IMG/VR virus record: IMGVR_UViG_3300034095_002552
Coordinates: 16,077 to 80,076 of that record
Strand: one strand, 5' to 3'
Source of the DNA: a virus
Length of the DNA stretch: 64,000 nucleotides
Shown here: piece by piece, positions 42,117 through 45,029 of the stretch
Layout: each line of letters opens with the position of its first letter
Numbering within the stretch: the first letter of the stretch is position 1
Translations under genes and position numbers: made by a program
Notes under the pieces: model-generated
Told to the model about the DNA's origin: nothing
Database searches by the model: none
Seen by the model: the letters and a program-made list of their open reading frames with translations, nothing else

Positions 42117-43328
42117 TTATTCTAATTCTTCGTCTATCACATCGTCATCATCTGAACCCAATACATCAGTTTCGATGACATCAGCACCAAGCTTAAAGTT
42201 CATTGCATCCTTAAAAGGCTCAAAATAATCAACCAACTCCTGCTCAGATGTAGCATCCACCAAACTTGGATATTTAAGCAATATTTCAAGTGGCACTTCA
42301 TTTTTATCAAGCGAAGCCTTGAACTTTACTTCTTCTCCATTGGAAAATGCATCTGCGATGACAAAATTACCAGCACTTTTAGCCACAATTCTATTCGCAT
42401 CAAGCAAACAAGACAATAAGCCACTAACAGGATTTATTCCATGTTCAAAAAGCAATTGAATGTTTTCTGTTGAAATAAATGGCGTGTGAGTCTTATTCTT
42501 GACATTTTTAACACGAATGTTAATTCCAAGAATCTTGGTTTTTTTTGCACTGATTTTATATTCTATCTTCTTCATTGTAGATGTTTCTAATCTACATGAA
42601 GCATAGAATGGTAAAGCGTTACCACCGCCAGCAGTTGTGGTTGGATTGCCATAAAGAACACCTATCTTGGATCTTGTCTGATTCAAAATAACAACAGTGG
42701 CATCATTGGTTTCCATAACAGTATTAAGCTTACGGAATTCTCTAGAACAAATCTTAGCCCGTTCACCTGGCTGTTCATTGCCACCCACAATGCGTTTAAA
42801 ATCAGCTTTTGAGGCATTCTCTGGAAGCTTGACCTCTCTAAGCTCTCTAGCTGATGGACTCACGCCAATAGAATCGTAGACGATTGCAATAGGGCAGTCT
42901 TTTCTTTTCGAACGAACAAATTCGATAGATTTATACATCTTCAAAAAAACATCTTCCAAACTCTGAGGAGTATGCCTCACAATTTTAGTAAGATCACAAT
43001 GTGATGCCTTTTGAATAAATTCTTTATTAGCTGAATTTTCACAATCCTCAAGAATTGCAATTCCATCCTGTCTCTGACTTCCAAATAAAATATTTGTTCC
43101 TATCAATGATTTTGATGACGAAGAAGGACCATATATTTCAGTTAGCTTTCCGCCCGGAATACCACCACCCATAAACTTTCCACTACAAATATAATTTATC
43201 GCAAGATTCCCAGTATCAACAAAATACTTCACACTATCAATCTTGGCAACAATATCGCCACCAGTTTGATTTGCTAAATCTTGAAAAAATGAATCATCAT
43301 CGACCTTTCTTTTGGCCATGTTAAACAC
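42117..43328 (-). CDS. recA: RecA/UvsX recombinase
   Basis: DTGNLAIN, GGGIPGGKLTEIYGPSSSSKS, YDSI, ILNQTRSKIGVLYGNPTTTAGGGNALPFYASCRL. Confidence 0.93.
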   Translation of the reverse strand: MFNMAKRKVDDDSFFQDLANQTGGDIVAKIDSVKYFVDTGNLAINYICSGKFMGGGIPGGKLTEIYGPSSSSKSLIGTNILFGSQRQDGIAILEDCENSANKEFIQKASHCDLTKIVRHTPQSLEDVFLKMYKSIEFVRSKRKDCPIAIVYDSIGVSPSARELREVKLPENASKADFKRIVGGNEQPGERAKICSREFRKLNTVMETNDATVVILNQTRSKIGVLYGNPTTTAGGGNALPFYASCRLETSTMKKIEYKISAKKTKILGINIRVKNVKNKTHTPFISTENIQLLFEHGINPVSGLLSCLLDANRIVAKSAGNFVIADAFSNGEEVKFKASLDKNEVPLEILLKYPSLVDATSEQELVDYFEPFKDAMNFKLGADVIETDVLGSDDDDVIDEELE

Positions 43329-43354
43329 CTCGGTAAAAATGTAATTATTTTTTT

Positions 43355-43389
43355 AAAAAAATAGGTGGAATCACTGACTCCACCTATTT
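43355..43389 (-). terminator. intrinsic terminator after the SSB gene
   Basis: AAATAGGTGGA / TCCACCTATTT with an A run on plus (U tract on minus). Confidence 0.8.
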
Positions 43390-43401: not shown

Positions 43402-44415
43402 TTAAATACCTTCTAATTCTTTCAAAAAGTCATCATCAGCAAGAGATGCAGAATCATCCGTTTTGGAAACTACCTTTGCAGTTTTCTTGACAGATAAAAT
43501 TTCTTCATCAATAGTATCTGAACCAGAAATTACATTTGAAGAACTTAAGTTAGATCTAGAAGAAGATCCCGATGAATTACGAAATTCATCTAAAGAATCA
43601 TCTTGTTGGCCTTCTACTATCATTCCGCAATGAACTCTCAAGGCATGCTTAATATCATCGCCAGATTTGATAATACGAAGAGACTGAAGGTCTTGTAAAC
43701 TTGTTAGCCATTTTTCAAGCTCTTCTGAGGTGCCTGAAGAAGAAACTTCTTCAAACTTTGAAAAGTCATAGTTTGGATATTCTCTATTGCCACTCTTAAC
43801 AACTTTTTTAACAAGTCTAAAATCACGACCAGTTGTTGGATGTGTAATATCCCCTAATTCCTTTTCTCCAGCAGCCTCATCACCAAGAATTGCTCTCAAA
43901 ATCTTAGCATGAACTTGTTTGCCACATGAATAAATTTTTGGCCCTACATTTGTTCCTACTATAGACTTATTTTTAGGATCTACTTCCGATCTAACGATAA
44001 CATTGTAATAATATCGTTCAACTGGCTTTAACTCCCTAGCACTGTTACGCATATCTTCTTGATCTTTGCCAGACAGTCCTTCAGATTTTTGCCATAAATC
44101 ACTATAGTACTTACAAATAATGCAATCTCCACGCCATTGTGGACCCCTATCAGTATCGGTAAGAGTTTTAGGACAATGGAATATTCTTTTCTGATTCGTA
44201 GTTGGATTATTTAAAGTGTGAATTCTTGTCGCACAATACAACTTTTGGCCTTTTCTCTTAGGCAAAAAACGCATCAAAACAAATCCATCACGGTCAGGAA
44301 GTCGTACATATTTTGCAAAGTACTCTTCGTTTTGACCCGTGTTGCTTTCTGAATTTACTCGTTTGGATTCTTTTTTTAACTCGTTAAGATCGAGTGGTTC
44401 GTAATCGATACCCAT
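43402..44415 (-). CDS. single-stranded DNA-binding protein, T4 gp32-like
   Basis: MRFLP, H...CP...CIIC zinc site, RYYYNVIVR, DITHPTTGRDF, YPNYDFSKF, acidic tail DDDFLKELEGI; start re-called at ATG 44415 (MGIDYE) after AGGTG. Confidence 0.9.
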   Translation of the reverse strand: MGIDYEPLDLNELKKESKRVNSESNTGQNEEYFAKYVRLPDRDGFVLMRFLPKRKGQKLYCATRIHTLNNPTTNQKRIFHCPKTLTDTDRGPQWRGDCIICKYYSDLWQKSEGLSGKDQEDMRNSARELKPVERYYYNVIVRSEVDPKNKSIVGTNVGPKIYSCGKQVHAKILRAILGDEAAGEKELGDITHPTTGRDFRLVKKVVKSGNREYPNYDFSKFEEVSSSGTSEELEKWLTSLQDLQSLRIIKSGDDIKHALRVHCGMIVEGQQDDSLDEFRNSSGSSSRSNLSSSNVISGSDTIDEEILSVKKTAKVVSKTDDSASLADDDFLKELEGI

Positions 44416-44434
44416 GATAGCACCTGCCTTTAAA

Positions 44435-44555
44435 TGATGGTTCGAGTAATGAATAATCACTACTCAATTAGTTAATGGTTCGAGCAATAAAACATTTATT
44501 GCCCAGTTAGTCAATGATTCGAGAAACAAACGATATGCTTCTCAGTTAGTCATTT
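44435..44555 (-). repeat. three tandem stem-loops joined by conserved 16-nt linkers in the SSB leader (candidate cis-regulatory RNA)
   Basis: Period 38-39 nt; stems at 44444-44465, 44482-44504, 44521-44543; linkers AATTAGTTAATGGTTC and AGTTAGTCAATGATTC. Confidence 0.8.
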
Positions 44556-44581
44556 ATAATCGTATCTATCATGTTGTGCAA
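44553..44581 (-). promoter_or_regulatory. sigma70-type promoter for the SSB leader
   Basis: Minus strand TTGCAC-N17-TATAAA. Confidence 0.55.
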
Positions 44582-44597
44582 GATTAATTTTATAAAT

Positions 44598-45029
44598 TTA
44601 TTTATTTTCGTAATCGATTACTATTTGTGCATCAGGATCTTGAAATTTTTCCTGTGAATCGATGACACTTTTGTGCATGGCAGATAATTTATCCTGCAAG
44701 CTCATATTGCCTTCAGATTCCAAATTCTCATTAATTTGTTTTCTTATGTCTTGCTCTTGATTGTATTGTTCTTCAAGAGCTTTTAAAATCTCTTGATTTT
44801 TCAATAATTGTTCTTTTATTTTTTCTGTTTTTTTTGCTTCTTGATCCAATTGCAACTCTCTATTGTTAACTATGGGTGTTTTTTTAGGACTAAGTGATTT
44901 TTCCAAAAGGTTTTGACGAACAATTTCCCTTCGTTCTTTTCTTATAGCTTCCCTTCTAAGCAAAACCTTTGTATGTGATTTTTTTTCTCGTTCTTTTCTT
45001 TTCTTTGCAATTTTTTCATTTTTTTTCAT
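44598..45029 (-). CDS. basic coiled-coil hypothetical protein
   Basis: 143 aa, K/R/E-rich. Confidence 0.65.
   Translation of the reverse strand: MKKNEKIAKKRKEREKKSHTKVLLRREAIRKERREIVRQNLLEKSLSPKKTPIVNNRELQLDQEAKKTEKIKEQLLKNQEILKALEEQYNQEQDIRKQINENLESEGNMSLQDKLSAMHKSVIDSQEKFQDPDAQIVIDYENK

Follow-up and report, generated by a model that had tools for sequence, protein, structure and literature searches.

The stretch of DNA analysed here, 64,000 nt long and referred to below as the window, raises the question of what three tandem hairpins are doing in the leader of a gene for a gp32-type single-strand DNA-binding protein (SSB). Phage replication depends critically on SSB dosage, and for feedback on translation at the protein level the gene 32 operator of phage T4 is the textbook example. 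Beyond the T-even phages, we know of essentially no RNA targets of such SSB feedback. Further study in diverse phages has been called for, and autoregulation is not universal among T4-like phages, with RB49 lacking the operator features (PMC3014915). The IMG/VR record from which the window is taken is 80 kb long and is estimated to be only 16% complete; it is therefore a fragment of a very large phage, and its virus is found across many lake-water metagenomes.

The SSB gene (43402-44415, minus strand) encodes 337 aa and matches Pfam PF08804 (E 2.8e-10), passing the threshold of this gp32 DNA-binding domain profile with 41 bits against a curated cut-off of 26.8. Its product matches annotated cyanomyovirus gp32 proteins at 25-29% identity in tblastn searches, and its translation contains an H-C...C-x2-C zinc-site-like motif and an acidic C-terminus. 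A mechanical ORF call extends the protein to 352 aa by starting at an in-frame GTG (44458-44460, minus strand) that sits within hairpin 3; we rejected this start, since relatives align from the ATG at 44415 (MG..., 337 aa), and we judge the GTG at 44460 to be coincidental. The translation initiation region, CAUUUAAAGGCAGGUG (44413-44436, minus strand), consists of an SD-like AGGUG (44425-44421), a 5-nt spacer and the ATG (44415-44413). Directly 3' of the stop codon lies an intrinsic terminator (43355-43389, minus strand) with a 14-bp stem and then a U run (-18.7 kcal/mol, z -5.9), making SSB a one-gene transcription unit. A consensus scan overlooked this terminator, apparently because it allowed loops of 3-8 nt only and the stem would need a longer one. 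On the 3' side of the terminator are a RecA/UvsX-like gene and then a sigma-70-like gene. On the other side, a 143-aa ORF upstream of the SSB leader ends at 44598, and between it and the SSB start are, in that order, the promoter, the three units, the SD and the ATG. The RecA/UvsX-like gene probably begins at the ATG at 43309 (minus strand) rather than at the GTG at 43328 given in the ORF list. This ATG is preceded by ACAUUUUUACCGAGG (43309-43340, minus strand), which resembles the U-rich tract and SD in the SSB leaders of relatives, and a U-rich word, ACAUUUUUAC-C-GAGG, is found ahead of the gene.

The array runs from 44552 to 44437 on the minus (mRNA) strand as three tandem units of 38-39 nt, each composed of a 9-nt spacer, a hairpin of 22-23 nt (23, 23 and 22 nt) and a 7-nt tail, GAAYCAU. 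In unit 1 (44514-44552), the spacer UGACUAACU is followed by the arms GAGAAGCA and UGUUUCUC around the loop UAUCGUU, and then by the tail GAAUCAU. Unit 2 (44475-44513) has the same spacer, UGACUAACU, with the arms GGGCAAUAAA and UUUAUUGCUC around the loop UGU and the tail GAACCAU, and unit 3 (44437-44474) has the spacer UAACUAAUU, the arms GAGUAGUGA and UCAUUACUC around the loop UUAU, and again the tail GAACCAU. A 16-nt word is directly repeated in the array linkers at a 39-bp period. Hairpin 1 (44543-44521) has 8 bp plus a closing U-G pair and a 7-nt loop (-10.1 kcal/mol, z -2.4), and its unit scores 45.7 bits with the unit covariance model, R1. Hairpin 2 (44504-44482) has 10 bp plus a closing U-G pair and a 3-nt loop (-10.2 kcal/mol, z -3.9), and hairpin 3 (44465-44444) has 9 bp plus two flanking pairs and a 4-nt loop (-13.1 kcal/mol, z -6.2). 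All three stems are fully paired, with one internal G-U pair each and a closing U-G pair contributed by the flanks, and the three-unit array that a sequence-only reading of this DNA had described can be read directly from the minus strand. We rejected two other readings of the array: a tRNA-like or cloverleaf fold, which needs read-through RNA for its closing helix (a weak AU helix, UAAAUGA/UCAUUUA) and is uninformative, and a mini-ORF in unit 2, which we judge to be coincidental.

Because the stems hold G-U and U-G pairs on the mRNA strand, the plus strand has A-C mismatches at these positions, and the units fold more weakly there (-5.9, -6.4 and -7.7 kcal/mol). Folding of the whole leader gives z -3.6 for the minus strand and z -1.1 for the plus strand. 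Simple hairpins are frequent in the AT-rich window, where 196 of 8 bp or longer (G-U allowed) occur on the minus strand and three such hairpins fall within 90 nt at four places. The hairpin count alone therefore proves little, and the significance of the array rests on its repeated linkers, on in-register covariation and on conservation in relatives.

A promoter lies immediately ahead of the array (44553-44581, minus strand), with a -35 element TTGCAC (44581-44576), a 17-nt spacer and a -10 element TATAAA (44558-44553). It had been noted in the sequence-only reading, and the reading is borne out by conservation: none of its 29 positions differs from the window in either of two closely related JGI contigs, L076 and L077. 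The -35 block, AAUUAAUCUUGCA, is common to five more relatives (L004, L005, L007, L022 and L079). A consensus scan overlooked this promoter because TTGCAC matches TTGACA at only three of six positions. With the transcription start inferred from the promoter, the message would begin near the A at 44547/44546, and hairpin 1 would begin 3-4 nt after the 5' end. We also considered tandem promoters inside the array, and rejected them; the -10-like words that follow TTGACT/TTAACT are poor (TTTATT, TTTGTT and TCATTA), and the consensus promoter scan found no promoter within the array.

The strongest indication that the structure is under selection comes from comparison of units. Alignment A2 brings together seven units: the three of the window, two from L026 and one each from L005 and L007. 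In the 8-bp core of this alignment, all 56 of 56 cells are standard pairs and six of the eight pairs are changed on both sides; one stem position is A-U, C-G, U-A, G-U or U-G depending on the unit. By contrast, only 32-54% of cells pair in control structures slid by 1-3 columns. The hairpins of the window's three paralogous units align without a register shift, and these units alone have double compensatory changes at three stem positions. Compensatory changes are also found within lineages, from A-U to G-C between L005 and L007 and from C-G to A-U between L025 and L029; covariation is under-counted on L025-type leaders, which were aligned with MAFFT and hence without regard to structure. The linker sequence is kept as well as the stems, and the loops and the sequences of the stems are the least conserved parts. 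Together with the strand difference in whole-leader folding and the weaker plus-strand units, this in-register covariation supports the earlier suggestion of selection on the mRNA strand. Units comparable to those of the window, and covarying with them, are indeed found upstream of homologous SSB genes, where the sequence-only reading had proposed to look for them.

Conservation between strains is consistent with this picture. The three-unit array is retained in L076 (99% SSB identity) and L077 (98%), which differ from the window at 4/116 and 3/116 array positions, respectively. The corresponding counts are 20/338 and 33/338 for third codon positions of SSB, and 9/139 and 18/139 for third codon positions of the upstream ORF. 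On these raw counts, the array is roughly 2-4 times better conserved than synonymous sites. Unit 2 of L077 has two stem changes, one from G-U to A-U and one from G-C to G-U, that keep the pairing on the mRNA strand only, and the same two changes are present in the RNA contigs described below. Of two neighbouring changes in hairpin 1 of L076, one makes a pair stronger (G-U to G-C) and the other breaks a pair (A-U to A.C); the hairpin still forms in the fold despite the A.C mismatch.

Our searches for SSB homologues returned 321 at E<1e-40, 64 loci in IMG/VR and 36 in JGI metagenomes. About 35 distinct leaders have a shared design, in which a promoter is followed by one or more hairpins, an unstructured U-rich tract, the SD and the start codon. 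In these relatives, the hairpin starts a few nt past the expected transcription start, its sequence varies from lineage to lineage, and the U-rich tract, often ACUUUUUAC or UUAACUUU, is followed by GAGG/GGAG and the start codon. The design recurs, with one and sometimes two hairpins, down to about 36-40% SSB identity. For example, L112 (LR756511.1, a 595-kb uncultured phage) has, at positions 290-402, TTGACA-N17-TATAAC, two unlike hairpins, a U-rich tract and GGAG; as its SSB is only 36% identical to that of the window, the leader design reaches far beyond the window's clade. Most relatives have the ACUUUUUAC/UUAACUUU tract between hairpin and SD, and the window leader lacks it.

How the window came to have three units can be approached through the same comparison. 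Among the leaders compared, which leave out the Logan relatives P0001 (96%), P0002 (75%) and P0003 (74%), the nearest relatives have a single hairpin (L004, 71% SSB identity; L005, 69%; L079, 65%), and the hairpin of L079 has the same base, GAGC...GCUC, as the window units. L026/L085 (59%) have two units in tandem, with CUCGAAU after each of them as is also the case in the window, and L040 has two unlike hairpins. Several relatives have, between hairpin and SD, a stretch similar to the window linker (UUGACUACUAAC in L022, CUGACUAUUGAAUAACUGGAG in L019 and AUGACUAAGGAG in L023), which would fit repeated duplication of a hairpin-plus-spacer segment. Judged from these comparisons, a module that is present once in relatives has been triplicated specifically in the lineage of the window. 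Pairwise SSB identities, from which relationships were judged, place L026 at about the same distance from each of the single- and two-hairpin relatives, and the two L026 units resemble each other far more closely than the three of the window do; the expansions in the L026 and window lineages are therefore probably independent. Many relatives have a differing promoter-like block, CUAAAG-N-UUGA...GCCGAUAUAA, ahead of the SSB leader, about 60-100 nt before the SSB start (L015-L018, L061, L019, L023, L024, L037, L053 and others). This block may represent a phage-specific promoter class; several of the phages that have it, like that of the window, encode sigma-like proteins.

The structure appears at no other gene that we searched. 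Model R1 found no further copies of the unit in the window, in 35 loci or in five whole records of up to 136 kb, and the motif occurs nowhere else in the 80-kb record, such that among the records searched the structure is specific to the SSB gene. A blastn search of GenBank phages returned no match to the locus, and IMG/VR contained no match to the exact 19-nt linker pattern. Covariance-model searches with Rfam gave no match at the gathering score in the whole window and only noise at E<10 within 44350-44650, so the array is without a match to a described Rfam family, as the sequence-only reading had anticipated.

RNA libraries clearly contain the array: four freshwater metatranscriptome studies yielded contigs of an L077-like strain that span the SSB gene and the array, and run unbroken from the array into the coding region. 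Three of these contigs end within hairpin 1, at 44527-44539; these ends, which fall 7-19 nt before the predicted start is reached, give a weak hint at most of where the message begins. The 143-aa upstream ORF is essentially uncovered in the same three runs, which is a hint only, given that contigs and run selection are biased. A further RNA contig, X21, extends to 44619, across the promoter; either read-through or library DNA could account for this. RNA ends are not defined by contigs, and this stretch was itself used to select the runs; with that limit, the position of the array inside the RNA contigs speaks against a transcript that starts downstream of it.

Taken as a selected, strand-specific and gene-specific RNA structure in a one-gene SSB transcription unit, the array is very probably a cis-acting structured leader of the SSB mRNA. 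The closest parallel is the gene 32 operator of T4, which consists of a 5' structure and an unstructured AU-rich tract, more than 40 nt long and with UUAAA/UAAA repeats, that includes the ribosome-binding site (RBS) (PMC535899, PMC3014915); gp32 nucleates on the 5' pseudoknot and spreads over the unstructured tract to the RBS (PMC535899). The window leader and the gene 32 operators of T4, T2 and RB69 belong to the same gp32-type SSB gene family, and their layouts follow a similar logic, with a folded 5' element ahead of unstructured, G-poor RNA into the RBS of an mRNA for which high stability would be expected (PMC535899, PMC3014915). Nonetheless, the differences are substantial. The window SSB is only 25-29% identical to T4-type gp32. 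The window has three tandem modules rather than one structure, and these are plain hairpins; we looked in the folds for an H-type pseudoknot (about 28 nt in the T4 operator) and found three simple hairpins only, and inspection by eye revealed no complement to any hairpin loop among the linkers and flanks of the transcript. Instead of UUAAA/UAAA repeats, the relatives have ACUUUUUAC/UUAACUUU words; in the window leader a single UUUAAAGG precedes the SD and there are two unstructured linkers of 16 nt, with no UUAAA/UAAA repeat tract. Since pseudoknot, UUAAA repeats and sequence similarity are all absent, the array does not belong to the T4 gene 32 pseudoknot operator family.

On balance, we favour a leader that gives 5'-end protection, SSB feedback, or both. 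Hairpin 1, about 3-4 nt from the predicted 5' end and so placed much as in known 5'-terminal stabilisers (references in PMC3997798) and in the processed T4 gene 32 mRNA (PMC3014915), would shield the message from 5'-end-dependent decay, and hairpins 2 and 3 would likewise shield read-through transcripts that are processed in the linkers. By likeness to T4 gene 32, the leader may also be a candidate site of SSB autoregulation (PMC535899, PMC3014915). Structured elements that alternate with 16-nt G-poor single-stranded linkers up to the RBS would provide a nucleation site and a binding lattice for SSB; when in excess, SSB would then hold down translation of its own message in the manner of T4 gp32 acting on its pseudoknot and UUAAA tract. 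Three modules would raise stability, sharpen the response, or do both. Several observations count against the feedback component: not all T4-like phages have an operator (PMC3014915), the window leader lacks the U-rich tract of its relatives, and a U-rich word also precedes the RecA-like gene, which hints that the tract could serve translation in general rather than as an SSB operator. Further observations count against the favoured explanation as a whole: a pair is broken in hairpin 1 of L076, and contig X21 crosses the promoter, so that the transcript start is not fixed.

The array may instead act purely as an mRNA stabiliser and as processing punctuation, without SSB feedback, an explanation that we regard as a real possibility though an unlikely one. 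RNase E/RppH or RNase J attack that depends on the 5' end would be barred by the hairpins, and endonucleases may cut in the linkers, trimming read-through transcripts to stable, hairpin-capped species. The placement of hairpin 1 relative to the predicted 5' end, which is the same in relatives, fits this explanation, as does the one RNA contig that reads through from upstream. There is also precedent, in that RNase E cleaves the T4 gene 32 message immediately 5' of its structure and this message has an unusual stability (PMC3014915), and, as reported where PMC3997798 cites its references 93-95, 5'-terminal stem-loops stabilise mRNA. The ompA, papA and T4 gene 32 leaders resemble the window leader in having a hairpin a few unpaired nt from the (here predicted) 5' end of the mRNA of a highly expressed gene; they differ in that the window structure is triplicated with conserved single-stranded linkers and is gene-specific within the phage. 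The last of these features argues against stabilisation alone, since one would expect other highly expressed genes to have a generic stabiliser too, and the module is at no other gene in the 80-kb and 136-kb records. The conservation of linker sequence, in addition to the stems, argues in the same direction. If the array is a stabiliser only, it is an ordinary though neat example.

A more specific form of the feedback proposal is that each module is a unit of an SSB-titration operator, with copy numbers of one, two and three setting the threshold and steepness of repression. Each module would add one nucleation and melting step for cooperative SSB binding. We offer this only as a doubtful refinement; if it is true, phages tune SSB dosage by tandem duplication of RNA modules.

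It is improbable that the array serves chiefly as a translation enhancer or ribosome standby platform, on which G-poor linkers between stable hairpins would recruit the 30S subunit or protein S1 for very high SSB output. The linkers do resemble the stretch directly before the SD in L022, L019 and L023, a similar word precedes the RecA-like gene, and U-rich words are strongly enriched before SSB starts; 25 of 77 matches to ACUUU(U)AC and UUAACUUU words (453 kb, both strands, 35 loci) are concentrated in the 60 nt before SSB starts. We take UUAACUUU to be close to the 'epsilon' translational enhancer of T7 gene 10, UUAACUUUA. However, the window linkers are 30-110 nt from the start codon, which is far for a standby site, and the constant 22-23-nt stems would be left unexplained.

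A function at the level of DNA is less probable again. The 16-nt direct repeats at a 39-bp period, in a locus amid replication and recombination genes, could suggest iteron-like linkers to which a regulator or replication protein binds, or hairpin extrusion from DNA in its single-stranded state. Against this, covariation preserves pairing and not sequence, G-U pairs confine the structure to the mRNA sense, the position between the -10 element and the RBS is constant in all relatives, most of which have one unit and hence no repeats, and a reading as tandem promoters fails on the poor -10-like words.

The sequence-only reading had also raised the possibility of a precursor cut into three small RNAs of 38-39 nt, for which the regular unit length and conserved junctions could be cited. 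This proposal found no support and we consider it highly improbable: relatives have a single unit fused to the RBS, the records searched contain no further copies or arrays, the loops and stem sequences that would confer specificity are the least conserved parts, the RNA contigs continue from the array into the coding region, and there is no Rfam match. Least probable of all is a functionless remnant of tandem duplication, which would account for a copy number of one, two or three depending on lineage and is contradicted by the compensatory changes among the three paralogous units, by an array that changes less than synonymous sites and by expansions in two separate lineages.

With the structured-leader reading preferred, the novel part of the locus is the tandem, covarying triplication of a module behind a single promoter, together with the breadth of the single-module design in uncultured giant lake phages. 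A large clade of uncultured giant freshwater phages thus has a conserved, covarying and uncatalogued leader at one gene, in copy numbers of one to three. This is a candidate new cis-regulatory RNA family, and its natural copy-number series, from one module through two to three, is suited to asking how structured leaders set mRNA life and SSB feedback.

Hairpin 1 has one additional feature. Its loop and 3' arm (UUUGUUU) are complementary, via G-U pairs, to the SD region AGGCAGG (window 44421-44531), and an alternative, anti-SD pairing between them is possible, although this is not the minimum-energy fold of the full leader. In this variant of the regulatory scheme, the U-rich 3' arm, once released by the opening of hairpin 1, would pair with AGGCAGG at the SD. 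In L076 (leader at about 480-600), two U-to-C changes convert two such G-U pairs to G-C, which strengthens the alternative pairing, and weaken hairpin 1.
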